A stretch of 21,353 nucleotides of DNA, from the UHGV virus genome UHGV-0019869, one strand, 5' to 3'. Shown here piece by piece: positions 1 through 21,249 of this stretch (within the stretch, counting starts at the first letter, position 1; every line of letters starts with the position of its first letter). This stretch comes from a virus. The notes under the pieces are model-generated. The model had not been told where the DNA came from. It did no database searches and saw only the letters and a program-made list of their open reading frames with translations. Made by a program: the position numbers and the translations under genes.

Positions 1-227
1 ACGCGCATGATAGCCTCATCAATAATAAGGCTTTATGCTAGATGCATTCCGCTTTGCGACTCAACCTTTTTCACCTAAAGGATGACAAAACCACATAAAT
101 AATTTAAAAATCATAGCATTAGATTACTTAACGATTAAATAATAGACTGCAAAACGCGACAAAACACAACATATTCAGTCACTATGAATCAACTACTTAG
201 ATAGTATTAGTGACCTGAGGCAGAGCA

Positions 228-270
228 TTAGCGCAAGGTGATTTTTTGTCCTCTTGCGCTAATTTTTTGT
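228..270 (+). terminator. Candidate rho-independent terminator hairpin (10-bp perfect stem ttagcgcaag / cttgcgctaa, about 15-nt loop, then TTTTTT)
   Basis: Perfect inverted repeat at 228-237 and 253-262 followed by a T-run at 263-268, read directly from the sequence. No ORF of 60 aa or more lies in 1-556. Confidence 0.35.
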
Positions 271-556
271 CAACGGACTGGGTTAGTTGAATTTACAACC
301 ATGCTCAGTATCTCGATAAGCGCAGAGAAATGATGCAGTGGTGGGTGGACTAGCTTAATGGGAAGATTAACCTTTAGTGAGTAATGCAACGAACAAAAAG
401 TTCGCTATTGCAATATCAAAAAACACTTTAGTTATAACTATGAAAATAACCAAACTCATAATGTTGGGTTATCAATAGATTCCCCAACACTATATATAAT
501 ATGTTTAATTATTATTAAATAACTCCGTCACATCGCTATAATAGCGACAGAAGAAA

Positions 557-1156
557 TTATAATTTTCGCTCCCACCTAACACCCTCACGGATGAGTCTCA
601 ATGGTATTCCAGCATAAGATGATGATGGTCTTGATAGTTTTTTACCAACTAATGACTTAGTGCCAATAATACACCCATATGGTATTACAGAACCTTTGTT
701 TATTGTGACACCTTCACCAACCCACACATGGTCTGAGATAACAATATCTTTTGCGTGATTTATCCTCTCTCCACTTTCAATATCAATAATAGGATGCTCA
801 TCTGAAGTTCTAATATAAATAGAACTAGAGAACATGCAATCGTCACCAATTGTAATTGATTTACCTTCCATTGCGAAGAAATGCACACCAGCGGTGGTCG
901 TCCCGCTTCCAATAATTAACTTTGAACTGTTTTGCCGAATATCAATACAGCCTCTTATATTGGCTCTTTTTTTAATATGTAAGGTATTATTCCAACCAAT
1001 GATGTTTATTCTTAAATTTCTAAGAACTACACCTTCATCTATTGTAATTTTATGCCCGCTACCCTGCACATTAACTTTAACACTTTTGTCAATGAGTACT
1101 GATGGATGTACATTTATTTCATTACCACTTTCAAATTCACTGAATATATTTTCCAT
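557..1156 (-). CDS. Hexapeptide-repeat (left-handed beta-helix) acetyltransferase, 199 aa; candidate lysogenic-conversion enzyme
   Basis: The translation shows successive imperfect hexapeptide repeats with small or hydrophobic residues at regular spacing (IGDDCMF, IYIRTSDEHP, ISDHVWVGEGVTINKGSVIPYGCIIGTKSLV), typical of Maa/LacA/WcaF/NeuO-type acyltransferases. Sampled lines are AT-rich. It lies just beyond the tailspike on the same strand. Confidence 0.75.
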   Translation of the reverse strand: MENIFSEFESGNEINVHPSVLIDKSVKVNVQGSGHKITIDEGVVLRNLRINIIGWNNTLHIKKRANIRGCIDIRQNSSKLIIGSGTTTAGVHFFAMEGKSITIGDDCMFSSSIYIRTSDEHPIIDIESGERINHAKDIVISDHVWVGEGVTINKGSVIPYGCIIGTKSLVGKKLSRPSSSYAGIPLRLIREGVRWERKL

Positions 1157-1256
1157 AAAAATATTATCCGCATTACATAAACAGTCATACCAATCGATAC
1201 AATCTATCTCTGGTAGTATAAACGACCTTCCAATTCCATGGAAGATCCATTACACG

Positions 1257-3062
1257 TTATAGGTTTTCGAGTTTGTTCAATCTTTGCTCTAACCCCTCTA
1301 TCCTTGAAAATGCAACATCTATAGCCTTTGTAACAAACGGTATAACCTGTTCGTAGGCAATTGTTTTTACATCGCATCCATTGTTTACTAGATGATCTTG
1401 ATATATACCACAGTCAATTCCAAGTCGATCAAGTAATTCTTTAACTTGCTGTGCAAGATACCCGGCATGTTCTCTTTTCCTTTTTCTACTGCCATCTTTT
1501 TCATGTTGATGAATTCTAGTTTCAAAAATCGGATTGCCATTAGAATCATCACCAATTTTTACATTGTATTCTTCTATATAATCATCACGAAAATCCCACT
1601 TATAAAAATATGGGATTATTCCACGGACGAATGATACAGCAAGTTCTCCGTCTATTATTCGTTTATCTGCTTTATCACGCTCATCAGACCGAGTTTGCAC
1701 CGTACCATATACATAAACTGTCTGAGAAGAATTTCCTAACTGAATCTCATGATCTCCACCAACTCTGGCACGGCAGCCTAAAGCTACACAATTTAATTTC
1801 TCTTTTGCAGGTGTCCCATCAATCAAAAACCTACCAGCTTGATGTCCAAGATATACTAATTGGGTTCCAGTAGTCTCACTATCTCCTGACGCTGCACCAA
1901 CAAAAACATTATCACTTCCTGTTGTTAAATTAAAGCCGGAAGCCCTACCAATAAGAACTGAATCATTCATTTTTGTTGCTTTATATCCTGCTTGCATCCC
2001 ACAAAAAACAACACCATTTAATCCATTCTGTGACCATGCAGCTTGATACCCTATAGCAACAATATTATTGGGAGATTCCCCATATGAAGACAAACCAAGA
2101 GAAGCCTCACGTCCTAGTGCAACGTTTCCAGAACCATCCACATTTCTAAATAAGGCAGAGCGACCTGCAGCAAGATTATTACCGCCAGTTCCCGTCTCAG
2201 CACCAGAGAATGCTCCTATATAGGTATTACCACCACCAGTTGAGTTATTTTGCATTGCTGCTTGACCGACAGCAACGTTATCTCTTCCTGTTGTTGTTCG
2301 TGACCCAGCATCCGTACCAACTGAAACATTTCTCTCTCCTGATGTTAATAGTTTGCCAGCGTTATAACCAACCACTACATTATAACTACCGGTTTTATAG
2401 TTGGCATAAGAAGAACTTTGAGCGTAAATAAAAATATTACAACTACCTGTAGTTAACAGTGCTCCAGCCTCATGTCCAAGTAGAACATTGCGCTGTCCTG
2501 TTGTAAGGCTTGCACCGGCTCGTCTACCAATACCAGTATTTTCCGCACCAACAGCCTCATCTGACTCGTTACCTATAATTGATGATCCTGCTCCAACTCC
2601 GAAAAAAGCATTATTTTTCGCATATTCATTAGAAGAAAATGCATCAATTCCCCATACCGTATTACTTGGGTCAGCATAACCAGGAGAATTTTCACCAGAA
2701 AAATTTGTTAATTCCTGCCTTAACTGATCTGGAGCATATTTCATTACATTTGGGAAATAGTGCTGCTGAGAGCCATACGCATCAAAAATCGCCATTGAGT
2801 GATTTTTTATAGTCGCAAACTTACCGAATTGACCATTCAATACAGGTTGTCCAGCTTGACTTATTTTTATTGGTTGAGAAACCTTAATATATTTTCCATT
2901 CTCATTCTCAAAATAAACATCCACTTGATTATCTGGATTAGTCGGATCGGTATCAGGCTTCCCGATATAAATGCTTCCATTCGATACTGATTTAAATGTT
3001 CTTGACATTGTGAACAATTGATTAGGCATGGAAACTATAATGTTAGGTATAATGTCTGTCAT
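1257..3062 (-). CDS. Mosaic tailspike, 601 aa: P22 gp9-like N-terminal head-binding domain, Gly-rich repeat central domain, C-terminal intramolecular chaperone (peptidase S74-like) domain
   Basis: The N-terminal ~110 aa (MTDIIPNIIVSMPNQLFTMSRTFKSVSNGSIYIGKPDTDPTNPDNQ...HSMAIFDAYGSQ) closely resembles the P22 tailspike head-binding domain. The centre carries repeated G-x-x-A-G / TTG motifs. The C-terminus has SDERDK followed by GYLAQQV and IAYEQVIPFVTKAIDVAFSRIEGLEQRLNKLE, matching the autoproteolytic chaperone domain of endosialidase and T5 pb1-type fibres. GGAG RBS upstream of the ATG at 3062. Confidence 0.9.
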   Translation of the reverse strand: MTDIIPNIIVSMPNQLFTMSRTFKSVSNGSIYIGKPDTDPTNPDNQVDVYFENENGKYIKVSQPIKISQAGQPVLNGQFGKFATIKNHSMAIFDAYGSQQHYFPNVMKYAPDQLRQELTNFSGENSPGYADPSNTVWGIDAFSSNEYAKNNAFFGVGAGSSIIGNESDEAVGAENTGIGRRAGASLTTGQRNVLLGHEAGALLTTGSCNIFIYAQSSSYANYKTGSYNVVVGYNAGKLLTSGERNVSVGTDAGSRTTTGRDNVAVGQAAMQNNSTGGGNTYIGAFSGAETGTGGNNLAAGRSALFRNVDGSGNVALGREASLGLSSYGESPNNIVAIGYQAAWSQNGLNGVVFCGMQAGYKATKMNDSVLIGRASGFNLTTGSDNVFVGAASGDSETTGTQLVYLGHQAGRFLIDGTPAKEKLNCVALGCRARVGGDHEIQLGNSSQTVYVYGTVQTRSDERDKADKRIIDGELAVSFVRGIIPYFYKWDFRDDYIEEYNVKIGDDSNGNPIFETRIHQHEKDGSRKRKREHAGYLAQQVKELLDRLGIDCGIYQDHLVNNGCDVKTIAYEQVIPFVTKAIDVAFSRIEGLEQRLNKLENL

Positions 3063-3129
3063 TTAATTTGCTCCAGATACAAGGAATCGCCGCAGCATGG
3101 CTACGGTTGGTATTTGTTTGGTTTTTGAA

Positions 3130-3146
3130 CTACGAAAATTTCGTAG
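3130..3146. promoter_or_regulatory. Perfect 17-bp palindrome ctacgaaaatttcgtag between the ant terminator and the tailspike start, flanked by 8-bp inverted repeats (ccgcagca at 3090-3097, tgctgcgg at 3177-3184)
   Basis: Dyad symmetry read directly from the sequence. Function unknown; it could be an operator or an RNA structure upstream of the tailspike gene. Confidence 0.3.
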
Positions 3147-3198
3147 TGCTATCCATCAAGGCCATCGCCGCTTAGTTGCTGCGGTGAATTTTGGGCAT

Positions 3199-3222
3199 AA
3201 AAAAACCCAGCCTAAGCTGGGT
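3199..3222 (-). terminator. Rho-independent terminator downstream of ant (stem cccagc / gctggg, 4-nt loop, 7-nt U-run on the minus strand)
   Basis: GC stem-loop at 3206-3221 directly followed on the minus strand by the run complementary to AAAAAAA at 3199-3205, about 20 nt after the ant stop codon. Confidence 0.6.
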
Positions 3223-3240
3223 CGTTGCGTTGGTTATCTG

Positions 3241-4143
3241 TCAGTAGTTATGTACTGAAGGAGGTAATTCTTTATTCTTAAGTCTCATCCATGCGGAAAG
3301 ATTCGTTGGTCCGTCTGGCTCATTAATATCAACATCTCGTGTATGGTTGATTAAAACATCTCTCGCCATATCGATAATACGGGAGAACTCATAACCGCAG
3401 TCATGACATCTGCCGGAATAGTTCGATTGAATTTGTTTTAGCGCCGGATACAGTTCGCGGAATAATGCCTGTGAGCGGTTGGCATAATCCCATAACCATA
3501 CAAGGCTGTTTGCTTCTTTTGCAGAAAGCTCGTTGGTTTTCTTCTCTTGTTTGCCGATGAACTCACCTTCAAGCACTACCCTGTGGATGTACTCTACAGC
3601 TTGCGGTATCTGAGATGCATCAAGCTCTTCAATACTTTCCACATTGAAACGCTGATGAATCATTGCATAAGCTTCTGGGTACATTAGATGCTTTTTGCTG
3701 ACTAGCATATTTACAGCATCACGAAGCGGAGTCCTGTCATCAACAGATGTTTTCTTACGTGCATTTTCTGCCTTTCCCTTCGTCCAGTAGTCATGCAGCA
3801 CAGTAAAGCATTCTTCCTGGTACTGAATCAGTTTATCGCGGATGTCAGCACGAACTTTCTCAGGGTTGATGCTGAACAGCCATCCATTTAACTTCTTCAA
3901 AGGAAGGCAGAGTAGCTTACGAAGCTTACCATCAGCGGCAACCATGTTCATATGAACACAGTTGAATTTGCTAATCTGCTTCATGAGTTTTGTTTGCTGC
4001 GTTGACCAGCTCATTCCAAGGTTTTCAACGATTGGCTTCATCGCAACATATGCAACTCCGGCAGCCATGGCGGTGATAATTTGCTGACCATTGAAAGGCA
4101 CGTAAGAGGTGTTCACTGCTTCTAAAATTGCTATACTATTCAT
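3241..4143 (-). CDS. ant: Antirepressor Ant, 300 aa
   Basis: From [68 protein letters not shown] the translation matches my recollection of the P22 Ant N-terminus and its 300-aa length. The ORF track's 322-aa version starts at an upstream in-frame Met inside the sar/terminator region, so I chose the ATG at 4141-4143, which has a GGAG RBS. Confidence 0.88.
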
Positions 4144-4144
4144 G

Positions 4145-4216
4145 TTGGTTTTTCTCCACGGATTTACTGACAACCGAAGCCCTGACTGTTCCCGCAGTTG
4201 GGGCTTCACTGTTTTT
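4145..4216 (+). ncRNA. sar: Candidate Sar-like antisense RNA (about 70 nt) complementary to the ant RBS and start region
   Basis: A plus-strand -10-like TATACT at 4133-4138 lies inside the ant 5' end, and a plus-strand hairpin (gaagccc 4176-4182 / gggcttc 4201-4207) is followed by TTTTT at 4212-4216. Position and size match the P22 sar antisense RNA architecture. The -35 element is weak. Confidence 0.4.
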
Positions 4217-4427
4217 GTAAGTCACTGTAGTTATAAAGCCACTGACCACTCATTCTTGCTTTGATTGACTCTACTGAATCACGGCAAGGAATGATTCCAC
4301 CTGACATCATTCTGATCTCCGTAAATTCACCGCTCCTTATCGACTCAATGCCATTAACGTTAACTAAAGATTTACCTCTACCAAGTGCATTCTCATAGCC
4401 AATCTCATCAACCTCAATAAACTTCAT
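4206..4427 (-). CDS. Hypothetical 73-aa protein inserted between arc and ant
   Basis: The ATG at 4425-4427 overlaps the arc TGA stop (ATGA overlap), with a purine-rich stretch upstream. No family recognised. This ORF occupies what I recall as a short arc-ant intercistronic region in P22. Confidence 0.5.
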
Positions 4428-4582
4428 ACCGTTATCCCCTCTCTCTTCAGGCTGTCCATCACTCGCTTATAAATCTCAGAGTTAACAGATCGCCCGTTCT
4501 CTTCAGCTACCTTGCGCACCAAATCCAATACTTCTTTAGGCCACCGCAAATTGAACTGCGGCATTTTGCTCATTCCTTTCAT
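4424..4582 (-). CDS. arc: Arc repressor (ribbon-helix-helix), 52 aa
   Basis: MKGMSKMPQFNLRWPKEVLDLVRKVAEENGRSVNSEIYKRVMDSLKREG is near-identical to P22 Arc as I recall it. The true start is the internal Met of the 73-aa ORF-track entry (ATG at 4580-4582), with a GAGGT RBS. Confidence 0.9.
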   Translation of the reverse strand: MKGMSKMPQFNLRWPKEVLDLVRKVAEENGRSVNSEIYKRVMDSLKREGITV

Positions 4583-4596
4583 ATTTACCTCACAAT

Positions 4597-4617
4597 ATAG
4601 GTCCACGGTGGACCTAT
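4597..4617. promoter_or_regulatory. Mnt operator: perfect 21-bp palindrome ataggtccacggtggacctat
   Basis: Perfect dyad read from the sequence. Its core GGTCCACGGTGGACC matches the P22 Mnt operator as I recall it. It lies in the divergent arc/mnt control region, which should contain the Pant and Pmnt promoters. Confidence 0.7.
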
Positions 4618-4624
4618 TGAGAAT

Positions 4625-4645
4625 ATAGTAGAGTGCTTCTATCAT
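4625..4645. promoter_or_regulatory. Arc operator: atagtagagtgcttctatcat (imperfect dyad with TAGA half-sites)
   Basis: Matches the 21-bp P22 Arc operator as I recall it, located between the arc and mnt start codons. Confidence 0.7.
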
Positions 4646-4672
4646 GTCAATACACTAACTTGGGGTGATGGC

Positions 4673-4927
4673 ATGGCTAGAGACGATCCGCACTTTAACT
4701 TCCGTATGCCTTTGGAAGTAAGAGAAAAATTGAAATTAAGAGCAGAGGCTAACGGAAGGTCAATGAACTCTGAGTTATTACAAATCGTTCAGGATGCTCT
4801 CTCAAAGCCATCATCAATTGTAGGCTATCGAGACGAAGCTGAGCGAGTCGCGGATGAGCAATCTGACGTTGTTAAGAAGATGGTCTTTGAAACGCTGAAA
4901 AATATTTATAGCAAAAGTAAGTTATAG
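4673..4927 (+). CDS. mnt: Mnt repressor (ribbon-helix-helix), 84 aa
   Basis: MARDDPHFNFRMPLEVREKLKLRAEANGRSMNSELLQIVQDALSKPS... is near-identical to P22 Mnt as I recall it. Divergent from arc, as in immI. Confidence 0.9.
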   Translation: MARDDPHFNFRMPLEVREKLKLRAEANGRSMNSELLQIVQDALSKPSSIVGYRDEAERVADEQSDVVKKMVFETLKNIYSKSKL

Positions 4928-4976
4928 GCTTATGACGTATAGTTAACCATATCGATATTGGCTCGCGTGATGACAA

Positions 4977-5696
4977 ATGAAAAAAAGTAATGGACTCACA
5001 TTAAAACTTGACGGAACCACCCCTGGCCAGCTGTCAATGGCTAAGTTGGTCAAGTATATGTCTGCTCTCGTAGATCTATACGGTTCTGCAGATTCTGTTC
5101 ACTTCGACTGTGTAAGTGAAGGATCGGCTGACTTAAATGCATGGGTCGATAATGATATTTGTTATAACGCTGTCATAGCAAGGGCCTCTCTCTCAGCCAA
5201 AGAGAAATCACCCGCGTATCAAAAAATTGTTAATTTACTGGAGCATGATGGTTTTTCAGCGAAACTACTCGGACGAAACCACTCAACCATTATCGCATTC
5301 CCGCGAGTAAAAAAGGAGCCAATCCCTTTACTCATAACAAAAACGTCAGAAGTTCAAGGAAGGCTATACAGTGTTGGCGGAAAAGACAACTCAATACCTG
5401 TGCGTATTGAGGGAGCCAACGGTGAAACATTCAAGTGCGAGGCAACCCCTGATTTGGCGGCAGCTCTTGGGTCCCATCTATTCAAATATATTAGGGTTAA
5501 AGGAGATGGGTGCTGGGAAAAAAAGAACAACAAATGGGAGCTAAAGAAACTAAAAATAACTTCATTTGTATTGCTCAAAAAATCATCACTCAAGGATGCT
5601 ATTAATGCTATCAAGCAAGTTCCTGGAGATCAGTGGTCCGAGGAACGCGATGTTGATTCAATCCTTAGGACTCTGAGGAAGATAAATTGCGAGTAA
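4977..5696 (+). CDS. Hypothetical 239-aa protein, first gene of the accessory cassette downstream of mnt
   Basis: Long ORF in a markedly AT-rich segment (about 30% G+C in a sampled line, against 40-63% in sampled structural-gene lines). Its 3' end overlaps the next gene's start by 10 nt. No recognisable catalytic motif. Weak RBS. Confidence 0.65.
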   Translation: MKKSNGLTLKLDGTTPGQLSMAKLVKYMSALVDLYGSADSVHFDCVSEGSADLNAWVDNDICYNAVIARASLSAKEKSPAYQKIVNLLEHDGFSAKLLGRNHSTIIAFPRVKKEPIPLLITKTSEVQGRLYSVGGKDNSIPVRIEGANGETFKCEATPDLAAALGSHLFKYIRVKGDGCWEKKNNKWELKKLKITSFVLLKKSSLKDAINAIKQVPGDQWSEERDVDSILRTLRKINCE

Positions 5697-6235
5697 TTTT
5701 AGATACCAATATTCTGGTATACCTACTATCAGATATAGAACACGATTATAGATTATCTGACCCTATACTTGGTTCTGAGATTCCAGATGCCAAAAGAAGA
5801 GCAGAAGCTCTTGTTGATCGAATAGATAACAAGAACGGGACAATCATCGTTCCAACTCCTGTATTGGCGGAGTTTTTAGTTGGAATCCATAAAGATTACC
5901 AACAAGAAAAACTGAATGTTATCAAATCGTTATCGTGCTTCGAAACTGTATCATTTGATGAGTTGGCTGCTATTGAATGCGCATCGATACCAACATTAAA
6001 AGAATTAAGGAAAATTAGCACAGAAGGTACAGCAAACAAAATTAAGTTTGACAGACAAATAATAGCAATTGCAAGAGCAATTAATGCTGACGAGGTATGG
6101 ACTCATGATAAGGGAGTGTTTGAGCGTTGCAAAAGTCTCAATATTCCTGTGTTCACATTATCATCAATAGAACCAATTCCGGTTCAAAGTCTCATGGAGT
6201 TCTTACACGATTCAGACGATCAGAGATTACACTAA
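5687..6235 (+). CDS. PIN-domain nuclease-like protein, 182 aa (TTG start)
   Basis: The N-terminal ILDTNIL motif with an invariant Asp, and downstream acidic residues (AEFLVG; FDRQIIAIARAINADEVWTHDKG), are typical of VapC/PIN folds. The TTG at 5687-5689 is preceded by GAGGAA at 5675-5680. Confidence 0.75.
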   Translation: MRVILDTNILVYLLSDIEHDYRLSDPILGSEIPDAKRRAEALVDRIDNKNGTIIVPTPVLAEFLVGIHKDYQQEKLNVIKSLSCFETVSFDELAAIECASIPTLKELRKISTEGTANKIKFDRQIIAIARAINADEVWTHDKGVFERCKSLNIPVFTLSSIEPIPVQSLMEFLHDSDDQRLH

Positions 6236-6251
6236 AATATAATTTTTATGC

Positions 6252-6279
6252 ATCCGTGATAATTACATCCGTCACGGAT
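6252..6279 (+). promoter_or_regulatory. Inverted repeat atccgtga (12-nt spacer) tcacggat between the PIN gene and the small membrane-protein gene
   Basis: 8-bp perfect inverted repeat at 6252-6259 and 6272-6279, read from the sequence. No T-run follows, so it may be an operator or attenuator rather than a terminator. Confidence 0.3.
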
Positions 6280-6362
6280 ACATAAAGCTATAGCCAAAAG
6301 TGGACAAACCTTTATCTCACTCCAAACCATCTGGTATCCTGCACAAAACTAAGGAGGTTGGT

Positions 6363-6590
6363 GTGAAGCGATGGTTCCTCATAATTACTGTTTTCGCGAT
6401 CATTTACACTATTTTCCCTGCATTAAAAGCACCAATGCAAATAATTTCGCTTGCAATAATTGCAATTGGTGCTTTCATTGCAGTAGCCGTACTTGTGTTT
6501 AAGGTTTTAAAGTTTTTAGTTTGGCTATCAAAAGATGATGGATGCAAAGTTCATCAAGAAAAAGAAGGCAAAATAACCAAAGTTGACTAA
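6363..6590 (+). CDS. Small hydrophobic (predicted two-helix membrane) protein, about 75 aa
   Basis: AGGAGG at 6352-6357 lies 5 nt before the GTG at 6363. The product WFLIITVFAIIYTIFPALKAPMQIISLAIIAIGAFIAVAVLVFKVLKFLVWL is strongly hydrophobic. The ORF track's alternative start at 6300 lacks an RBS. The stop overlaps the convergent gp16-like stop. Confidence 0.55.
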   Translation: MKRWFLIITVFAIIYTIFPALKAPMQIISLAIIAIGAFIAVAVLVFKVLKFLVWLSKDDGCKVHQEKEGKITKVD

Positions 6591-8710
6591 CTGTCACTAG
6601 CGAGCCATGTAATAATCCCCGTGCGGGCAATGGTTTTTGCTTCATCTGTTGATAAGGTTTTCTCCCATCTCTTAAATGCCCCAGATTGCATCAGTTTCCT
6701 TTCTATTACGCGTCTCACTTCTGCTCTGTCTACAGGTGCGTTTTGCAGGCGAAATAGCATTGATTTAAACTCAGGAGAAGACAGTAGAGCATCAGCAGCC
6801 TTTATCCTGCTTGTTTTCCCTGACATCAATGCTGACGTTATCACCCCTGTTGCACCTACACCAGGAAGACCAGATAAGCTTGTAATACCTTCCGCCGCAG
6901 CAGCTTTTGAGGCTATTCCATAAATTTTTGCGAGACTACCCTTTTCTTTCAGAAAGTTATTAACTTGCTGATCCACAAGACTACTAGCATACTGCTTACC
7001 AGTATTGAGTCTATTCATAGCCTTAGCTGCTTGATAAATCGTATCAAGGCGCTTTGATGCATCTGTGCCAATAGCATCACGGAGAGCCTTCATATTGGCC
7101 CCATTGCGTGACATTCCGTTATACCATTTTACAAATCCATCAACCCCTAATTGCTGACCTGGTGATTTAGCATAGCTGGTAAATGCTTTATTCATTGAGG
7201 TGAGCGCAACTTCCTGCCGCATATCCTTTGGAATTGACTTCATTAATTGCCTAAAGTCACCACCGTTTCCTTTTGCCATATTAACAACGGCACTTTCAAC
7301 TTTTGGAATTGCTGATTGCTGAAGTTTTCTACCCAAAACGGTTACGGCATCATCTTCAATGGATTTTCGTGTTTTTACCAACTCCTTACCAAGCGTCCAT
7401 AACTCCCCTGCGCCATATTTTTCTGCGACAGCCTGTTGGTCATCTGTTATAGCCGCATATAACTTTTTAAGAACACCTGTTTCTTCATCCTTGAATGGGC
7501 CAGAGCCTTTGCCAATAGCTTGCCCAACCTGCTTTCTAGCGAGATCTAAACGCCCATACGTTGGCAAGGTGTTTGGATCAAGTCGGTTCAATGTCCGCTT
7601 CATTATTGGAGATAATTCATCAATTCCACCTATATCATCAGCAAAATCCTCTAAAAAATTCAATGTATTAGTTGCCTCAATCCGGTCTCTTACAGGAACC
7701 TTTTCGGCAATTTTGTTGTAGATGTTATCTGACTGATTTTGTAATGATGAAATGGTTTTATCAAAATTATCTGCAAGCCTGTCAGAAACCAGTTGCTTAT
7801 CAAGGCTTCCCCCAAATGAAGTTATCATTTCATCAGCTTTTCTTCCTAATTCAGTAATAAAACGCTTATGCGCCTCACTAATCTCTGTTCCAGGGAGACT
7901 TGCCACTGCATTATCAAGAGCCCTGACAGCAGGATTATTAGAGATCATGCCTGGAGTGGCATAATTTTCCAGTTCTAGCTCACGAATAGCATTTATCGCG
8001 TTAAAATCAGGATTAACTTCATCGGCGAAATCTTGAATAGCTCGTTGCCCGCCGATAAATTTATTGTCCATTGCGCCAGCAGCTTTCTTTAACGTTGCTT
8101 TAGATGATTTACTACCCATCCCTACGGATGAGCGATAAATATCTCCGGCACTATTTTTAATTTTTCCTGCAATCTTCCCAAGAGCTGGACCAACAATCTC
8201 TGCTACAGGGCCAGCCACAGCGCCAATAGCAGCTCCAGAAGCAACATCGCTATTTGTTCCATTGGCTACAATAGCCCCTTCTCCAGCACCAAGCCCTGCG
8301 GCGGCAGCCAGCCTTGCCGCCCCTTTCGGAACCTGAGAAATAATCCCACCACCACTAACAAATGGTGCTGCTTGTCCAACGAACTCACCAACATCTTGTA
8401 CGGTTGATGGTTTTGCCGCTAACTTCTGCTGTAGAGACTGAATTGCGGCTTGCTCTTCTGGTGTCATATCCTGAAATAGACCAACACCTTTACCAACATC
8501 CATCAATCCACTGAGAACGCCATACATAAAACGGTCGAAACCGTTAGCATTATTAACAACATTTTCCTGTCTGGAATTTTCCTCTGGTGAAACCAAAGGA
8601 GATTGCTGCTGTTCTGGTTGGGCATCAAGCACAAAGCCATCAGGAAGCTGTGAGTTATCAGGCTGTTCATCCAGAACAAATCCCTCTGGTAAACCTACAT
8701 TGGTTGCCAT
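6587..8710 (-). CDS. Ejection (DNA transfer) protein, P22 gp16-like, 707 aa
   Basis: Last gene of the late operon, in the gp7-gp20-gp16 order. Gly/Ala-rich central region; N-terminal duplicated LP(E/D)GFVLD(E/A)QP motif. Confidence 0.8.
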
Positions 8711-10044
8711 TGTCCGTTCCTGTAAATAATTTTCTGACCAGTTTTAGGATTTTTCGCGGTCATACCTTCTCGAAATGTTTGACCGCCAGATGTTGCTTGT
8801 TGTGTCTGTTGTTGCGCAGGCTGCTGAATATCTTCATACAGCTTGGCTTTTCTGGATTGCAATTGCTTAGTTAGTCCGCTGGGGAGAGAATCTCCATAAG
8901 TTGAAAGATAATCATCCATTTGCTGGTTAAACTTTTCGCCTTCAGTATTTGCCATCAGTTTTGAGGTGTTGATTAAGTCTTGGACTTGCTCATTATTCAG
9001 CATCTTGCCGTTAGATAATTGGCTAACATAGTTACCAAGTGTGCCGAATATTCCATCAGTGCGTTTTACCTGCACTTGCTCACCTTCGCGTACCACAGAT
9101 TGCGGATCCAGCGATTTCATATAGTTGAAAATCATTCCCAACTGCGCGGCTGGAGTGTTGCGCTTCCCAAGGGCTTGTAGGTTGTCAGAAGCACTGCGCA
9201 TTGCAGAATAATTCTTTGAGAACCCATTAATATCACTATTCAGATCTCGAACAAGTTTTGGGTCAATCTTTCCGCTTTCCTGTTGTTTCATCCCTAATTC
9301 CTGCAACTTCAGGGCTACGTTATCATTATGCATTTGTGCCCGCTGAGCCCTGTCTAGTTGAGCGTTTTGGATATTTGCCCATCCTCTCGCGTTCTCCATG
9401 TCAGCCTGACGGATGCTTTCATCCAATCGCCCTTTCTCAAGTTGGCGACCAACCATCTTATCCTGATAATCCAGCATTTTATCCGGACCAACAGCCCCTA
9501 GCGTCATAGTAGTCAGCATGTGTGATAGCTGCTCTGGATTCTGGATACCTGTCTGAATCATCCAGTCAGCATTAGCACCAACGCGATTTAACCTGTCCTT
9601 GTTGTCAGTAATGAATTTACTGTAGGCTTCCGGTCCCTGAGAAAGAGCGACGTTAGCCCTCATGGCTAAATCGCCCATATCGTTACGTTGCTGCTCATTA
9701 AGACCGGAAAACGCCTGTTGTGCCTGTGCAACAAACGCTGGATTTTCCTTGGCAAACTTAAATAGTCCCGATGGATCACCAGAAGCCCATGCATCAGCGT
9801 GAACCTTATTGAACGCACTAATCGCTTTCTGTTGCTGTTCCTGATTGTAAATATCAGCAACTCCAGCCAGACCACGTAACGCGGTCAGACCAACGTTATT
9901 TGCACCTGAGCGAGCCAGTTCATTGTTTTCGCGGATCAGACCAAGCGTTGCGTTAATGTCGCTTGCCTTTGGCGCATTCTCGTTTTGCGCACCAATGCCA
10001 GCCAGAAAACCACCAGAATTAATACCCTGTTGCCACGTAGCCAT
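8695..10044 (-). CDS. Ejection protein, P22 gp20-like, 449 aa
   Basis: Position and size in the conserved P22-like order; Gln/Ala-rich product overlapping the neighbouring genes. Confidence 0.8.
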
Positions 10045-10054
10045 TGATTACCCC

Positions 10055-10747
10055 TTAAAACAACGAGCCAAGCAGACCAAGACCGCCGCCGATCGCAGCC
10101 CCCCACGGAGTTGATGAACCAATTAATTTCGCAAGTCCGGCCCCAGCAATAGCACCAGACGCACCTCCGCCAATAGCAGATTGCATTGCTGATGGTCTGT
10201 TGGCATTTGCCGCTGCAAGAGCCGCACTTTGCTGCGAAATCTGACTCATGTTGTTGGCATATGTCTGCCCTGCGTTTGCCTGACCTTGCAGAGCACCAAG
10301 CCCAACGTTTGCCAGATTCTGGTAGTTGTTCATCTGACCAGACAGCCACTGCTGACCAAGCGTTGGTGCGATTGTTGCTAACTGATTACCGGTTGCAGTG
10401 GAACCCAATCCACCTGTTGCTTCCGCTGCCGCCAGACTCTGATAGCGAGCCTGACCAGCAAGATCTTTGTACTGCTGAGAGTTGTAATACTGGTTAAGTG
10501 CCTGACCTTGCCCTTCCAGAGACGATAAGTTCTCGAGGCTGCCGACATACTTATCAGCCAGAGGAGTAAACGGCTTCAGGTTGTTCATGATGGTGTTGAA
10601 CTGCTGATTTTGCAGGTCTGCTGCATACTTCTGAGCTTTTGCTGCATACTTTGCGCTTTTATCAGAGCTGCCACCTTTCCCGCCTTTTTCAGGGCAATAA
10701 GGTTCCTCGCCGCGCAGTTTTCTGCCCAGCTTAAATGCATATAACAT
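10055..10747 (-). CDS. Ejection protein, P22 gp7-like, 230 aa
   Basis: Size and position match P22 gp7 (about 229 aa); Gly/Ala/Gln-rich. Confidence 0.8.
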   Translation of the reverse strand: MLYAFKLGRKLRGEEPYCPEKGGKGGSSDKSAKYAAKAQKYAADLQNQQFNTIMNNLKPFTPLADKYVGSLENLSSLEGQGQALNQYYNSQQYKDLAGQARYQSLAAAEATGGLGSTATGNQLATIAPTLGQQWLSGQMNNYQNLANVGLGALQGQANAGQTYANNMSQISQQSAALAAANANRPSAMQSAIGGGASGAIAGAGLAKLIGSSTPWGAAIGGGLGLLGSLF

Positions 10748-10749
10748 GG

Positions 10750-11208
10750 CTATCTCCCGTGATTCAGGAAGTCGATTAGTTCTTCGCGTGTTGCGCTGTA
10801 AAACGTCACGTCATCCACGCCTTTGAAGTATTTCTTGATGGTTCCTACACGCTTAAGGCCAATCATTGCGCAGTACATCTGACCGTGGCGGAATTTGCGC
10901 GCAGCGAACGATGTGACGCACTGAACGGTGGTGTTAGTCAGAATGTATCGCCAGAACGCCAGACCGATTTCCTTGCTGAATCCGCGAACCTCTGGCAGGT
11001 ACATGGCGTGGCAATCGAATGTCAGCGGCTGAATCTCCTGATAGTAAACAATGCCGCCGAACTGCCCGTGCACATTCACCTCAAAGTAACGGCAATCAGG
11101 TTTGTAGTCGTATCCATCACCGTTGTTGCTCCCGGCGATAATGTCAGGGTGATTTCCTACGGCTTCTATCAGGTCGATGTTTCGCGTTGGTTTGAACTGA
11201 ATCATCAC
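10750..11208 (-). CDS. P22 gp14-like protein, 152 aa
   Basis: Conserved position between the tail needle and gp7-like genes. The start ATG overlaps the upstream stop (ATGA). Confidence 0.75.
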
Positions 11209-12158
11209 TGCTCCGCGATTATCTTGATGGTTGTGGCAGTAAACGCCGCACCATTTGACTGAATGGTTAACGTGCTGCCATTTGTGGCAAGAAAGCCGTC
11301 TTTATCCACGCTGAAGAACGTAGCTAACAGGATGTTATCGGTTGTTGTCGCCGAGTTGCGACTGCTTACCAGTGTGTCAGGAACAGATCCGGAAAAGGTT
11401 AGCTGCATTGACCTGTTTGCGGTTCCGCTGGGCCACGTCCCGACAATCGACAGCTTGAAGAACAGGGTTTTGTTCTCGTTGAAAACAACCATCTTGTTGT
11501 TATCAGTATCGAAGAATGGTGCCAACGTCCCGGATGACGGCGTGAGCGTTTTCAGCAGGCTAACAAGGTTGGTCGGCGCTGTTGGAATGGTTACCGATAC
11601 TCCTGAGTAAACAACCTCTGATTTCTTGCGCGTGGTGGCATACTCAAGCGCAGATATTCTTGTTGAGTGATCACCAACTGTGCTTTGTAGCGTCGAAATA
11701 CTTCCCTCTGCCGCTGTGAGCCTGGTATCAAGTGCGTTGATATCGGTTGTATTCTGAGTTATTCGCGCATCATGGTTTGCTAACTCAGATTCATTGGCAG
11801 CAATTCGCGTCTCGTGATCAGCCAGCTCTGTTTCGGCAGCCGTAATCCTTGTTTCATGATCTGCAAGAGTGCTTTCCGCTGCTGCGATTCTATGTTCATG
11901 ATTGACGAGAATTGCTTCAGCAGCAGCAATTCTTGATTCATGGTCTGCAAGAGTGACATCCTGCTCATCATTCTTCACCTGTGCATCATAAGCCCCCTTC
12001 CCTGCTTCGTTGGCCTTGTTAGCCACGTTACCAACATCAGCACCCTGTGCGATAACGTACAGCAGATATGACTGCGAGAAGATATTGCGTGGAAGGACTG
12101 ATGTGTCGAGTCGTGTAGCCTGAATGATTACCGGCTCATTGAGATTCGAATCAGCCAT
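11205..12158 (-). CDS. Tail needle (P22 gp26-like) with extended C-terminal knob domain, 317 aa
   Basis: The N-terminus [43 protein letters not shown]...[13 protein letters not shown] resembles P22 gp26. It is followed by five tandem 14-aa coiled-coil repeats (ADHExRIAAAE-type) and a C-terminal domain of roughly 170 aa that P22 gp26 lacks. Confidence 0.88.
11753..11960. repeat. Imperfect 42-bp tandem repeats (about 5 copies) inside the tail-needle gene, encoding the trimeric coiled-coil heptad repeats
   Basis: Repeated units of the type gcagcagcaattc...catgatc(a/t)gcaagagtg are visible in the DNA and correspond to the repeated LADHE(S/T)RI(A/T)AAE peptides. Confidence 0.6.
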
Positions 12159-13576
12159 TACTCGATCCTTATCTGGCAGCCTGACAGAGTGACAGGTGAC
12201 TTAGTGATAACGCGCAATTTGAAGCCGACATTTTTCCTTATTCGCCCGACGCGCTTCCACAAAACGCGTTTGTCGTAAACGAACGGTTCATTCTGCTCAA
12301 TCATCTGCTCACGCCCGTAATTGATGCCGTCAGTGGTTGCAGAGAGAAAAAGGCGGTCGGCGTACTGCGCAACGCCAGTTGACGATTCAACCTCAAAGTC
12401 AAACACTCTGGCGTTATCCGCTTTGAACAACGGAGTAAACAGCAGGTGTTCCTGCTGCTTGTCGTACTGGCTGCTGATATCGAACTGCAATTTCCCGGTC
12501 ACCGATTCCAGCTTATCGCCGCACGTTATCTGATTTCCTTCGTAAATGAAGTCGATAGCGCGGTACACATCGTCATACAAGCCTGTTTTCAGTACACACC
12601 ATTGCGGACCATTGGCGCTTGAAGATGCGTCGTAAACAAGAACATGGCGCGGAAGGTGGATAATCAGCAATTCATGAGCATCAAACCGCAACGATTCCAT
12701 CACGCCATCAGCCAGTTCATCAGCAGTGTAGGAGCGGAGGATTTTCTCAATGCTCGCGCTGGCGATTGGTGATACCTGACCTGATCCGATGATGTATACA
12801 GACGGCGCACCCGTTGCCGGATTGCTGATAAACGCATACGAATCAGCAAACGGCGTTTTGCAGTAAGTTCCGGCAATGCCTTTCTGCACCATCAGCGATG
12901 GCTGTGCGACATACAAAGCGGCACCAACGGTGGTTGCCCCCGTCAGGGAGAAATATTCAATCGTCGATGAACCAAAGCAGACGATGAAGTCTCGCCATGT
13001 TCCGATGCCGATGATGCCGTCAGGCTGAGACTCGGCACGATATTGTGCGCTGTAACGGTCAGGATGTGATTCGTCTTCAAGGTCAGTGATAAACCATGAA
13101 TCAGTTCCGTCTTTTGACCACGCATAACGCCCACGTAAGCGCGTAATATCGCGGACTGAACCTAACTCATACTGAGTGAATCCGCTGTCTGTAGGCCAGT
13201 TTGAGACTGTTTTAACCGTGCCATCATAGCGATACTCGACCAGTCGACCATTAACGCCTACCGCCTGTGATGTCCGACCATGCGCCATTGATACACGACC
13301 ACTTCCGGCGACATCACCGACTTCGCTTTCGCCTTTGTAGAGCTTGCCGCCACACACACGATAAACAGCATTCTGCGCCATGTTGTACTCGACGCCGCGC
13401 GATACGCCGTTTACATCAGAGCGTTTGGCAATGCCCGGGAATGAGCGAAGATATCCGCTGCTGTTGAGGATTTCTTTGGGTGTAGCCAACATATTCACTG
13501 GCAGATAGTCGATATAGTCGGCGTTTCGAAAGTCTTTGCCGACACCTTTCATAAGCGGAAGTTGCTGAATTGGCAT
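12158..13576 (-). CDS. Head-completion / tail hub protein, P22 gp10-like, 472 aa
   Basis: Same length as P22 gp10 (472 aa) and the conserved position after gp4. Confidence 0.85.
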
Positions 13577-13585
13577 TTATTCACC

Positions 13586-14047
13586 TCACGTACTCGAATC
13601 ATCTTTCTCGATGTAAAACCGATTCCACGTAAACGCGCTTTTGTTACCACTACCGCGAGGCATGTCATTTCGCCGCTCAAGTGGTGGTATTTTGGTTAAA
13701 GCGATACAGATTGTTTGATATGCACTGTCAGCAGCGGTAAGGAGAGCGTCTGACGGCTGAATGACGTTATCCATGCACACTTGCACAGCGAGTTTCAAAG
13801 CGACGCCATCATTTGCCCATGCAGGGATACCTGAATCATCGTCAGGTAACGGCATGATGCCGTTTTCTGTATCAGCAAACTGATACCCAAGCTCGATACC
13901 TTTCTCCTGCCATGCTGCCATCATGTCTTCGAGGTCATTAATGGCATCTTCAATTGCCTGAGGGTCAGCATCTATCAACGTGGCATTGGAATACAGCCCG
14001 GCTTTTCGTAAAGCCTTAAGAACGAGATCACCCTTCGTTTTCGCCAT
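13586..14047 (-). CDS. Head-completion protein, P22 gp4-like, 153 aa
   Basis: The N-terminus MAKTKGDLVLKALRKAGL resembles P22 gp4 (KTKGDLV...ALRK). Conserved position. Confidence 0.85.
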   Translation of the reverse strand: MAKTKGDLVLKALRKAGLYSNATLIDADPQAIEDAINDLEDMMAAWQEKGIELGYQFADTENGIMPLPDDDSGIPAWANDGVALKLAVQVCMDNVIQPSDALLTAADSAYQTICIALTKIPPLERRNDMPRGSGNKSAFTWNRFYIEKDDSST

Positions 14048-14216
14048 CTTCTTCCGCCTTAGCCACTTTTTGCTTCGTTGCGGTTTCTTCAGGGGTTTTT
14101 ACCCAGCCTTTTTTCAGGTGAGATTTAACTTCTTCGTCATCAACAATGATGTAATCGACAGCAAACTGACCACAGGTGATCATGTTGCCAGGCTTATAGA
14201 GCATTGTTCGTGCCAT
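14028..14216 (-). CDS. Small conserved hypothetical protein between the coat and gp4-like genes, 62 aa
   Basis: The ATG at 14214-14216 is preceded by GGGAGAAG. P22-like phages carry a small ORF at this position. The ORF track's longer 74-aa version starts inside the terminator hairpin. Confidence 0.5.
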   Translation of the reverse strand: MARTMLYKPGNMITCGQFAVDYIIVDDEEVKSHLKKGWVKTPEETATKQKVAKAEEDGENEG

Positions 14217-14227
14217 TGTCTTCTCCC

Positions 14228-14250
14228 AATAAAAATGGGGCCGAAGCCCC
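14228..14250 (-). terminator. Candidate partial terminator or attenuator hairpin immediately after the coat gene (GGGGC stem, UUCG tetraloop, then AUUUUUAUU)
   Basis: ggggccgaagcccc at 14237-14250 with an A-run at 14231-14236 on the plus strand, which is a stem-loop plus U-run when read on the minus strand just downstream of the coat stop. Confidence 0.45.
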
Positions 14251-14257
14251 ACTAAAA

Positions 14258-15511
14258 TTACTGCCCGGCAATAACGATGCCCGTATATTCAGGAACCAGT
14301 ACAGAGCAACCGTACAGAGTGGTGAAACGCGCAGTGGTTACGCCTTTGATATGGTCGAAGGCGTAAGACATGATCAGCGTAGCGCCCTGCTCGGTGGTTG
14401 CTGTCATTACCTGTGGACCCTGACCAGTCGGGAACGCCAGTTTGCCGTACATCAGTTCAACAGAACCATCAGCCCAGAACAGGTTAGCCGGTGCGGCATT
14501 TTTGTTGAGAATGGTAATTGCTGCACCATTTGCCGCGTTAGCATCAACGTTTGCATATGGACGGCTGGCGACATCTGCGTTGTCAGGCGGCAGAATTTTC
14601 GGGGAGATAGTTACTGTCGTTCCGCTTACTGCCAGAACGCGGAATACCTGCGGCTGCCCGGTGGTGTCTTTGGTGATCTGGTGTACAGAATTCACGCCAG
14701 CAATGGTGAACGCATCGCCAACCTGCAACCCAGATGCAGATACCGTAATAGTCCCCTGTCGGTTATCCACTGGCATATCGTTGGCATCTTTCGCTTCAAC
14801 CTTGTGCGCAGGTTCAGCCGCCAGCGTCAGGGAAGTTGCTGTACCCTTCGGAACACGACCAGAAATATCGGTCTTGTAGCTATCGAAGGACGCAACAGGA
14901 GGGATCTGCGCTTTTTCGTATGCTGTCAGGGTTGCGCCCTGAGCATAGGCACGGTGACCAAGCTCGCCAGCAAGGTCTTTGTAGTTGAAGGGGTTCCAGA
15001 AAGAGCGGCGGTTGATACCCTGTGGTACACCAATCGCCGTCATGGTGGCATCAATGCCTGCCGCACAGTTCCACAAATCACGGCCCTGTGAACCAGTGGT
15101 TGAGTCAGCCATTGTGATCACGTTAGTAGCACGCTGCGTGACCATGGAAATCAGGTCAGAGTCAATCTGTGCAGCAAGGCGCATACCTGCGGCGCGACCA
15201 GCTTCAGTTTTATGTTCCGGGTCACGCATTTCACGCGCATCCAGAGTGTACAGAATGTTTTTCGGCTCCTTGAACACAGAAGGAACAAGGCGCTGAACCA
15301 GTGCTGTTGGCGTTTTGCTGCTGAGGTCGAGGCCTTCCTCAATGTTCATGTGGTAATGCTGCGGACGATACAGAACATCACCTGCTCGCTGCATTGCTGT
15401 ATCACCGGGACGGAATTTTTTAGCGTTACGGGAAACTACGCAGGCGGCCTCAAAGCCTTCAACGTAGTTTTCGAACATGATTTCAAGGTCTTTTGCTAAT
15501 TGGTTAGCCAT
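14258..15511 (-). CDS. Major coat protein, P22 gp5-like, 417 aa
   Basis: Position after the scaffold gene and size. Local matches to P22 coat (MQRAGDVLYRP against MQRSSNTIWMP; FWADGSVELM against FWADDAIRIV). Confidence 0.88.
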   Translation of the reverse strand: MANQLAKDLEIMFENYVEGFEAACVVSRNAKKFRPGDTAMQRAGDVLYRPQHYHMNIEEGLDLSSKTPTALVQRLVPSVFKEPKNILYTLDAREMRDPEHKTEAGRAAGMRLAAQIDSDLISMVTQRATNVITMADSTTGSQGRDLWNCAAGIDATMTAIGVPQGINRRSFWNPFNYKDLAGELGHRAYAQGATLTAYEKAQIPPVASFDSYKTDISGRVPKGTATSLTLAAEPAHKVEAKDANDMPVDNRQGTITVSASGLQVGDAFTIAGVNSVHQITKDTTGQPQVFRVLAVSGTTVTISPKILPPDNADVASRPYANVDANAANGAAITILNKNAAPANLFWADGSVELMYGKLAFPTGQGPQVMTATTEQGATLIMSYAFDHIKGVTTARFTTLYGCSVLVPEYTGIVIAGQ

Positions 15512-15529
15512 GCTTAATGCTCCGATAGG

Positions 15530-16423
15530 TTATTTTTTTGCCTTTTTAGCGGCGAAATACGGCGTCCAGTCACCAGTTTCCAGCACCTTGGCTTTCAGTT
15601 TGTCGAGGTTATTGATTACTGCGCCGTTGCTCCCCTTAACTGTCGGGGTTGTGGCTGCCGTGGTTTTTGCTTTTGGCATGATTCTGGCCTTAGATTCGAT
15701 ACGTTCCAGCAGACGACCAATTGCTACGGGGTTGGTAGCTTCTGCCAGTTGCTTGCGCAGTTCAGCGTTGCGGCCGAGTGCCAGAACAACGATTTCCGGC
15801 TTCTCTGACTCAAGAAGGATCATGTCCTGAATGTGAACAGGAACATCTTCGCGTACAGCCTGCTCTGCATCTTGGTAGCCAGCCACTTTCAGTGCTTTTA
15901 CTCTATGCATGTAATTGGCTGCTTTCTGCTGAAGCGTTGCGGTACGCGCCTCTTCCTCTCGTTTCCGCTCTCGTATTTGCTCCTGGTACTTGCCGTTATC
16001 CTCTGCCCACTTAGCCATGCGTTGCTGATAGATTTCTTCATCGAAACCGATGTCCTCATCATCCAGTTTTGGCATTCGCGGTGGTTGAGTGATTACCGGC
16101 TGCTGCTCGACGGGTTTCTGAGACTGACGCATCAGCTCTTTCAGCTCGCGGTCTTTCTCTTTAATCGTCTTGCGCAGGTGTTTTACCAGTCCATGCTCTG
16201 CGCTATCTTCACTGGTTGGCGAATCCAGCTTTTCGTCACCAAAGTAGAATTCCTGTTCTGATTCGTCGTCATCAGTTTCAGTAGCTTCCTCTGCATCATT
16301 GCCGGAGGACTCACTGCCATCTTCTGTTTCGACTTCTTCAGCCAGTTCGACATCATCAGGAATCTGCTCTGACGCGTCGGTTTCGATTTCAACTTCTGGT
16401 GTGTTTTCTGCCATCTGGTCCAT
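15530..16423 (-). CDS. Scaffolding protein, P22 gp8-like, 297 aa
   Basis: Acidic N-terminus, charged coiled-coil middle and basic C-terminal tail. Conserved position between portal and coat. Confidence 0.85.
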   Translation of the reverse strand: MDQMAENTPEVEIETDASEQIPDDVELAEEVETEDGSESSGNDAEEATETDDDESEQEFYFGDEKLDSPTSEDSAEHGLVKHLRKTIKEKDRELKELMRQSQKPVEQQPVITQPPRMPKLDDEDIGFDEEIYQQRMAKWAEDNGKYQEQIRERKREEEARTATLQQKAANYMHRVKALKVAGYQDAEQAVREDVPVHIQDMILLESEKPEIVVLALGRNAELRKQLAEATNPVAIGRLLERIESKARIMPKAKTTAATTPTVKGSNGAVINNLDKLKAKVLETGDWTPYFAAKKAKK

Positions 16424-16513
16424 TTGTTACCCCTGTTTACTCGATGTTCAGCCCATCGGAAGGCAATAGGGTGCCAGGCCTCATAAAGACAGCCATTGCA
16501 CGTTATGGGTTAA

Positions 16514-18712: not shown

Positions 18713-18713
18713 A

Positions 18714-20653: not shown

Positions 20654-20690
20654 TGCTTATTCTCTTTATTTAGTTAAACTATCTCCCTAC

Positions 20691-20706
20691 GAGCCCATAG
20701 GGAGTG
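20691..20706. repeat. Left copy of a 16-bp perfect inverted repeat (gagcccatagggagtg)
   Basis: Exact reverse complement of 20941-20956, read from the sequence. It also lies within a local palindrome ctccctacgagcccatagggag. Confidence 0.6.
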
Positions 20707-20825
20707 CCGGAAGCGATATCGTTCAAGTGGTGAAAAACATTACAGCAGTAGGACTTTTGTTTTATCCACTGATACCAAAAGCAGTAAAAGTTGTTAGCGA
20801 TATAGCCAAAAGCAAGGGGGTTGCC

Positions 20826-20969: not shown

Positions 20970-21249
20970 ACTCAATATAACCAATTCGTTTCTGCCTCAC
21001 ATATTGTGCTTTTACTCATTGTCGAGACCGCTCATTGAATGGCCTCTGCAATAACCGATGTCTTTCCATCAGTCCGCCACCACAAAGAATCTTTTTTGCC
21101 ATAAGGCTGGAGGTTCATCTTTCAGTGGCTGCCAGTGTTATTTCCCCGCTTACTGGCTTGGGTTGTTTCGTGGTACTGCCGTTAACTGGTGGCCCAGAAT
21201 AAATTCCGGTTTCATTATCAAGCCCACCCGTAAATGGGCTTTGTAATGG

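Follow-up and report, generated by a model that had tools for sequence, protein, structure and literature searches.

The locus

This report concerns an acetyltransferase gene at the end of a P22-like prophage of Escherichia coli, found in UHGV virus genome UHGV-0019869; the whole stretch of DNA that was analysed (21,353 nucleotides) is referred to below as the window. The gene lies directly downstream of a tailspike gene, and the end of the window that carries both is composed as follows.

557..1156, minus strand: gene of an O-acetyltransferase of 199 residues, assigned below to the NeuO/OatWY subfamily of left-handed beta-helix (LbH) enzymes
1157..1256, minus strand: spacer of 100 base pairs from the tailspike stop to the acetyltransferase start
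1257..3062, minus strand: tailspike or fibre of 601 residues, with PF09008 and S74 domains
380..556: non-coding flank 3' of the acetyltransferase stop, within the mobile module; near-identical in the torT, argW and dacD copies
291..377, plus strand: 3' remnant of a tyrosine integrase gene, 87 base pairs (RefSeq annotation)
1..290: chromosomal flank, with the start of torT (1-8, minus strand) and torT-proximal intergenic DNA

The preliminary description of this DNA, made from the letters, had proposed a hexapeptide acetyltransferase adjoining the tailspike, and this is what the locus contains: an intact open reading frame (ORF) of 199 residues with an ATG start, placed 100 base pairs downstream of the PF09008 tailspike. 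The gene is AT-rich, as was also described, with a guanine-plus-cytosine content of 35% versus 47% for window positions 3241-21353. Beyond the tailspike lie ant and arc/mnt-type genes and then the P22-type virion genes; this P22-like virion module (coat, portal, the ejection proteins gp7 and gp20, needle knob, terminase) makes up the rest of the window. Since chromosomal torT begins at the left end of the window, the acetyltransferase is the final gene of the prophage. The features of a conversion-gene slot are present (terminal gene of the prophage, position directly downstream of the tailspike, atypical base composition), and the earlier placement of the gene in such a P22-like slot holds: neuO occupies the same position in phage CUS-3, at the prophage end after the tailspike.

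Enzyme subfamily and active site

In a phmmer search of the PDB, the product matched over approximately its full length NeuO (3jqy, E = 2.8e-31) and OatWY (2wlc, E = 7.2e-31); the next matches were Maa/LacA at 1e-8 and Vat/CatB at 1e-4 to 1e-5. The NCBIfam models gave 19-47 bits versus curated cut-offs of 192-475, all far under the cut-off: WbbJ 47 versus 243, Maa 35.5 versus 314, LacA 34.9 versus 347, the WcaF family 32.4 versus 192, and Vat/CatB 19-30 versus 300-475. The hexapeptide signal itself is weak (Pfam Hexapep E = 8e-4, under the gathering score; LbH_EIF2B E = 9e-5), and solved LbH acetyltransferases align to the product along its full length. When 50,697 phage records were searched, relatives at 38-40% identity were confined to the neuO genes of two phages, CUS-3 and phiv205-1.

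An AlphaFold2 model built from 49 homologues (mean predicted local distance difference test score 97.3) is an all-beta soluble helix, and no AT3 membrane acyltransferase domain was found by Pfam. The Foldseek comparison of this model gave a template modelling (TM) score of 0.92 to OatWY (0.9 Å over 190 residues) and 0.87 to NeuO, with the remaining LbH enzymes at 0.6 or less. Judged by its sequence and modelled fold, the enzyme is of the soluble hexapeptide class and belongs to the NeuO/OatWY subfamily of capsule O-acetyltransferases. The preliminary description had already named the soluble class, which the PDB matches and the model support, and had suggested a placement relative to NeuO, WcaF, Maa/LacA and Vat/CatB; profile, PDB and structure comparison all led to NeuO/OatWY. 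Orthology to a streptogramin or chloramphenicol acetyltransferase, which it regarded as contrary evidence, was not seen, considering the Vat/CatB scores above.

Six active-site residues are conserved between NeuO and OatWY; the catalytic histidine is residue 147 in NeuO and 121 in OatWY, and the tryptophan is residue 171 and 145, respectively (PMC3046976). According to the alignment, five of the six are kept in the window protein (Met108, His121, Trp145, Trp195 and Arg197), with numbering that coincides with that of OatWY. The sixth, Arg148 of OatWY, is replaced by Glu, and Glu148 is found in all 11 members of the close clade in the alignment. The change from Arg148 to Glu, common to every member associated with the capsule loci described below, is a candidate determinant of acceptor specificity. 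Tyr171 of OatWY corresponds to Gly in the window protein.

The tailspike neighbour

The tailspike starts with the P22 head-binding domain (PF09008, residues 1-113, E = 1.5e-50), followed by a Gly-rich repeat region and a C-terminal S74 intramolecular chaperone domain. Proteins of Aeromonas, Staphylococcus and SPO1-like Bacillus phages are 27-37% identical to its receptor-binding part (window 1257-2720), and the PDB, tblastn and PHROGs searches with the tailspike matched nothing beyond its head-binding domain, its S74 chaperone and Gly-rich fibres of a generic kind. The exact acetyltransferase protein occurs in 147 index blocks of public assemblies, with the tailspike adjoining it in seven of the seven places listed; the two genes were found together in every copy seen, and we refer to the pair as the cassette.

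Distribution, insertion sites and O-antigens

Of 5426 complete E. coli genomes, 7 carry the cassette. Region 2 of the capsule (kps) locus of one host, NMBU_W05E18, is of a type found in 12 of the 5426, and six of these 12 genomes are cassette hosts (hypergeometric p = 1.8e-16 for the overlap, uncorrected for relatedness). In the seventh host, the insertion sequence IS1 abuts kpsS directly after kps region 1 (locus L022, NZ_OZ039848.1 760564-769190), and kps regions 2-3 are missing together with the adjacent gsp/sslE segment; this looks like an IS1-mediated deletion of the capsule locus in a lysogen. Isolates carrying this capsule include those from human blood, a rectal swab, chicken, wastewater and surface water.

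Three places in the chromosome hold the cassette: torT, argW (here with a complete intS, in the CUS-3 arrangement) and dacD. The immunity regions and backbones of the phages differ, and the three sites have near-identical copies of the module (approximately 380 to 3062). We considered the O-antigen as the common host feature and rejected it, as the three hosts examined have different clusters: O86 in NMBU_W05E18, O16 in EC5931 and a third type in WWCOL-236. O86 itself is found in 80 genomes, at least 59 of them without the cassette. Because there are three sites, differing backbones and three O-antigen clusters, what the hosts have in common is the capsule locus and neither the O-antigen nor membership of one lineage. 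Even if just three independent acquisitions are counted, chance placement in a capsule type found in 12 of 5426 genomes is very unlikely. One rare capsule locus shared across different O-antigens makes the group 2 capsule, rather than lipopolysaccharide (LPS), the likely target as far as these genomes indicate.

The O-antigen clusters offered a separate observation. In NMBU_W05E18 the O86 wzy gene is annotated as frameshifted (L025, 9595-10993), and in WWCOL-236 wzx is truncated by IS1 (L026, 8537-9190). Because O-antigen genes are damaged in these two hosts, the capsule may be their main exposed polysaccharide.

Capsule type of the hosts

KrkA, a K13 protein of 1113 residues, is biochemically a bifunctional enzyme, a retaining transferase of Kdo (3-deoxy-D-manno-octulosonate) and a ribofuranosyltransferase (PMC12887879). 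A capsule-typing study of 2026 grouped the set from K13_K23 through K19, which includes K97, K112 and K141, by a polymerase ORF of more than 1100 residues; ribofuranose-Kdo repeats are confirmed for K13, K19, K20, K23 and K97 (PMC13171606). In the same study K112 has five serotype-specific genes, gene 11 encodes 1157 residues with HAD-like and Capsule_synth domains, and K112_11 is 55.0% identical to K97_8 (PMC13171606).

Region 2 of NMBU_W05E18 encodes a HAD-domain polymerase of 1157 residues, a 456-residue unknown protein, a family 2 glycosyltransferase, a small phosphatase and a nucleotidyltransferase of 525 residues. In region 2 of this one examined host, there is no acetyltransferase gene and there are no sialic acid synthesis genes. 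Its polymerase is 54.9% identical to that of the kps type of strain STEC299. We infer that this kps locus is of the 'K112' type because of the five genes, the 1157-residue length with the same domains and the matching identity of 55%; by the same identity logic STEC299 would be K97. The assignment of STEC299 to K2 or K13 was dropped, as the supplementary identity table pointed to K97. We also rejected the proposal that the cassette hosts share the STEC299 kps type, since the two sets (11 and 12 genomes) do not overlap. The kTYPr supplements have no per-genome K type entry for NMBU_W05E18 or LC-1302-2020. Strain ECONIH5, which carries a lambdoid version of the cassette (see below), is the K141 reference genome, and its kps locus has a polymerase of 1158 residues with the same architecture and no acetyltransferase.

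Relatives and their genomic context

Among 5.8 billion proteins searched, 87 proved to be relatives, and the context was checked for those 50-71% identical on long contigs. It is of two types.

One comprises capsule loci of the ABC-transporter (group 2-like) kind. A homologue of 199 residues (WP_157848273.1), 52% identical over the full length, is encoded by E. coli STEC299 and by ten further complete genomes in kps region 2, which consists of this gene and that of a 'HAD family hydrolase' of 1150 residues, the polymerase. Two metagenomic ABC-transporter loci contain homologues (51% and 50%) beside HAD-domain polymerases of 1150 and 1176 residues, amid kpsMTED/CSF-type genes, and that of Phytobacter (57%) is placed immediately outside kpsMT, where it adjoins a polymerase of 1162 residues. 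In the metagenomic locus L019, an acetyltransferase of the same clade is encoded together with homologues of three K112 proteins: the family 2 glycosyltransferase (50%), the phosphatase (62%) and the nucleotidyltransferase (49%). The close homologues with informative context all lie in ABC-transporter capsule loci and none in O-antigen clusters.

The other type is a prophage end near the same type of fibre. In E. coli ECONIH5 (57%) and Citrobacter freundii (55%), the final gene of a lambdoid prophage encodes a homologue of 203 residues and lies two genes beyond that of a tail fibre of 852 residues. This fibre has the same architecture of Gly-rich repeat and S74 as the window tailspike and is 30% identical to it over 531 residues (E = 6e-45).

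Two further settings were seen. In Phytobacter (L004/L005, 8760-11096), a Peptidase_G2 protein of 778 residues adjoins the acetyltransferase homologue, between the capsule locus and a sulfatase gene; proteins of this domain family are typically phage tailspikes or pre-neck appendages, and the setting is chromosomal. The closest non-identical homologue (P0002, 71%) is on a 2.8-kb contig (L003, 583-1323), directly downstream of a hexapeptide-repeat protein of 246 residues.

Repeats, expression signals and interruptions

The preliminary description had found no NeuO-style heptanucleotide repeat at the 5' end of the gene, and two independent scans agree with it. Tandem Repeats Finder at a low threshold detected nothing in 1-3300 except an unrelated 11-mer at 3107-3127, and a regex scan of the gene with 144 base pairs upstream detected only an A7 tract and three-copy di- and trinucleotides. 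Without a NeuO-type array, there is no phase variation by that route; the sole switching observed is insertional. A promoter and terminator scan of 1-3400 detected a terminator-like hairpin with a weak T tail after the tailspike (1247..1224). Two features within the gene are relevant.

967..973, minus strand: A7 tract on the coding strand
755..759: IS2 insertion site in strain LC-1302-2020 (NZ_CP091756.1), with a 5-base-pair duplication, GTGAT

The argW and dacD copies have A8 and a compensating deletion of one nucleotide 4 nucleotides downstream, which together change Arg-Ala to Lys-Ser. This sequence pattern points to past slippage followed by frame repair, and nothing in it indicates a switch. 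The ORF is intact in six copies at three chromosomal sites (98.8-100% identity).

IS2 disrupts two of the eight gene copies seen in complete genomes, in two genomes. The insertion in LC-1302-2020 cuts after approximately residue 133 and leaves an N-terminal fragment of 134 residues without Trp145; this natural knockout offers a useful comparison. The torT copy in MMC-J-0105 (NZ_CM128543.1) has an IS2 interruption of the same size. This is the only complete genome with two cassette copies, and the resident one is broken: the second, intact copy is at argW in another P22-like prophage (NZ_CM128543.1 1615039-1627638), and its tailspike has the same RefSeq accession as that of the torT copy in LC-1302-2020. 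The double copy would fit a lost superinfection protection, although this is a single case.

Integration end and other genes

Bases 1-272 match the sequence that annotations of Stx1a phages mark at the phage ends as a 'duplication due to insertion'. Because the integrase remnant (291..377) sits where the argW copy has a complete intS, it suggests that a phage integrating at torT acquired the tailspike-acetyltransferase module from an argW-type (CUS-3-like) phage by recombining with it.

Elsewhere in the window, two overlapping ORFs on the plus strand (4977-6235) lie between the arc/mnt-type and DNA-transfer genes; they encode a 239-residue protein of unknown function and a 182-residue protein annotated in RefSeq as PIN domain-containing. 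This pair may be a toxin-antitoxin or defence moron of the immI region; other phage copies hold different genes at the site (ClpP-like, YafO toxin, P63C).

Discussion

We believe it probable, judging from the sequence comparisons and the model, that the window gene is a conversion gene in the style of CUS-3 and NeuO, although not a phase-variable one, and that it acts on a capsule of the Kdo-ribofuranose type. That it modifies the polysaccharide used by the phage is supported indirectly, by the confinement of the cassette with its tailspike to one capsule locus. Under this interpretation, the acetyltransferase gene would be a moron of the P22-like prophage that serves lysogenic conversion. Judging by NeuO and OatWY, the enzyme would be a homotrimer with active sites at the subunit interfaces, where His121 would serve as the general base and Trp145 of the neighbouring subunit would line the acetyl-CoA tunnel. 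We presume that it O-acetylates the nascent group 2 capsule in the cytoplasm at the expense of acetyl-CoA, ahead of export by KpsMT/KpsED; since group 2 capsules are built in the cytoplasm, a soluble enzyme would suffice, as it does for NeuO. The acceptor in the hosts found would be the product of the 'K112'-type kps locus from the Kdo-ribofuranose set. The acetylated capsule variant would have an altered antigenicity and would hinder phages that use the unmodified capsule, including those with the neighbouring tailspike. For comparison, acetylation of K1 by NeuO raises survival against lytic K1 phage (PMC13001214).

Several points weigh against this interpretation. Six of the 12 K112-type genomes lack the cassette, and the association with the host could reflect the host range set by the tailspike alone, with the enzyme acting elsewhere. 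Neither a depolymerase nor a known specificity was found in the receptor-binding part of the tailspike by PDB, phage tblastn, PHROGs or Pfam searches. One of the six active-site residues of the characterised relatives is replaced (Glu at position 148). The scan of 1-3400 scored no sigma-70 consensus promoter in 1157-1256, and this spacer has no clear Shine-Dalgarno sequence ahead of the acetyltransferase ATG. The IS2 disruptions in two genomes indicate that the gene is dispensable. Finally, the K112 label rests on the gene count, the 1157-residue length and the matching 55% figure, and the structure of this polymer is unpublished.

Some of these points would be expected of a silent or decaying passenger gene with no present function in the lysogen, which we consider unlikely. 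The missing consensus promoter and Shine-Dalgarno sequence and the IS2 disruption of two copies in eight speak for it, and AT-rich DNA of this kind tends to be silenced by H-NS. A decaying gene is nevertheless hard to reconcile with six intact copies of the reading frame, 98.8-100% identical, at three sites, with the exact protein in 147 assembly blocks (next to the tailspike in seven of seven places listed), with the retained catalytic residues and with an A tract, prone to frameshift, that was repaired by a compensating indel and not left broken. It seems slightly less likely still that another envelope glycan is acetylated (O-antigen repeat units at the cytoplasmic face, where enzymes of the WbbJ type act, enterobacterial common antigen, colanic acid or the LPS core) and that the link to the capsule is a by-product of host range. 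The O-antigen is the classic target of P22-like phages, undecaprenyl-linked units are accessible to soluble LbH enzymes, and the best-named NCBIfam match is the LPS O-acetyltransferase WbbJ (E = 1.6e-12); however, this match has 47 bits versus a cut-off of 243, the O-antigen clusters of the hosts are of three unrelated kinds (IS1 interrupts wzx in one of them), the cassette is missing from at least 59 O86 genomes, and the informative close homologues are all in ABC-transporter capsule loci, none being in an O-antigen cluster.

The nature of the acceptor sugar is a related question. Both of the nearest characterised relatives acetylate capsule sialic acid, and Kdo and sialic acid are both ulosonic acids, so that an O-acetyltransferase specific for sialic acid, on polysialic acid or another sialoglycan, should be considered. 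We find it very improbable: region 2 of NMBU_W05E18 encodes a KrkA-type polymerase and lacks genes for the synthesis of sialic acid, the identity to NeuO/OatWY is 33-40% versus 50-57% to the enzymes in Kdo-ribose-type loci, and the close clade departs from the sialic acid enzymes at active-site position 148. That the enzyme acetylates xenobiotics (streptogramin or chloramphenicol) or, in the manner of Maa/LacA, sugars is hardly to be expected at all. The weak matches to the Vat, CatB, Maa and LacA models that could suggest it amount to 19-35 bits versus cut-offs of 300-475, the PDB E-values are at least 20 orders of magnitude worse than those for NeuO/OatWY, the TM scores do not exceed 0.6, and a resistance cassette was never the context in the loci looked up.

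Relation to known systems

NeuO of CUS-3 (PDB 3jqy) is the nearest known parallel of a capsule-modifying conversion gene. It belongs to the same LbH subfamily, with 38-40% identity and equivalents of the catalytic His and Trp and of Met108, Trp195 and Arg197; its gene takes the same place in a P22-like prophage, immediately downstream of a tailspike whose N-terminus binds the head and whose C-terminus is an S74 chaperone; and the order in the argW copy (argW, int, acetyltransferase, tailspike, ant) is that of CUS-3. The differences are as follows. CUS-3 has 19 copies of AAGACTC, whereas the window gene has neither a 5' heptanucleotide array nor a poly-psi domain, and hence neither phase variation nor tuning of activity based on repeats. 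NeuO has Arg at the position of Glu148. The window tailspike is no endosialidase, and its hosts have a Kdo-ribose-type kps locus, not the K1 neu locus.

OatWY of Neisseria meningitidis W/Y (PDB 2wlc/2wlg), the best structural match, shares the numbering of five active-site residues given above; in contrast to the window gene, its gene is chromosomal, within the capsule locus, and the enzyme acts on a copolymer of sialic acid and hexose. The in-locus enzyme of STEC299 also has 199 residues and Glu148, and its neighbouring polymerase is 55% identical to that of the cassette hosts; unlike the window gene, it lies within kps region 2 with no prophage, and it is uncharacterised. The AT3 O-acetyltransferases of converting phages, such as Oac of Sf6, share the ecological role, i.e., a prophage-encoded modification of a receptor or antigen near the tailspike. 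The proteins are unrelated, since Oac-type enzymes are integral membrane AT3 proteins that act on the O-antigen and the window enzyme is a predicted soluble LbH protein.

A literature search for NeuO homologues in other prophages gave nothing relevant; in the phage collection and literature searched, NeuO of CUS-3 is the only prophage enzyme of this class described as modifying the E. coli capsule.

Implications

It is tempting to regard the fibre and the NeuO-family enzyme as a portable cassette for receptor binding and receptor masking, which travels among prophages of podovirus and siphovirus type and from one integration site to another and perhaps makes unrecognised O-acetylated subtypes of Kdo-ribofuranose capsules (K112-type; K141 in ECONIH5). 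We would put the chances of this broader proposal at somewhat less than even.

If a second lineage is confirmed, capsule acetylation driven by prophages would not be peculiar to K1, and the CUS-3/K1 model would extend to capsules without sialic acid. The lineage in the window has a different capsule chemistry and no repeat switch and is common to two phage morphotypes. The modifying genes that lie outside kps await identification (PMC13171606), and K typing based on genomes is currently unable to explain pairs of serotypes that differ only in acetylation. Acetylation of K1 changes phage susceptibility and immune recognition (PMC13001214); for this reason, the finding would bear on phage therapy and on the design of capsule vaccines for the carrier lineages, and thus on K typing, phage susceptibility and the choice of vaccine antigens alike.

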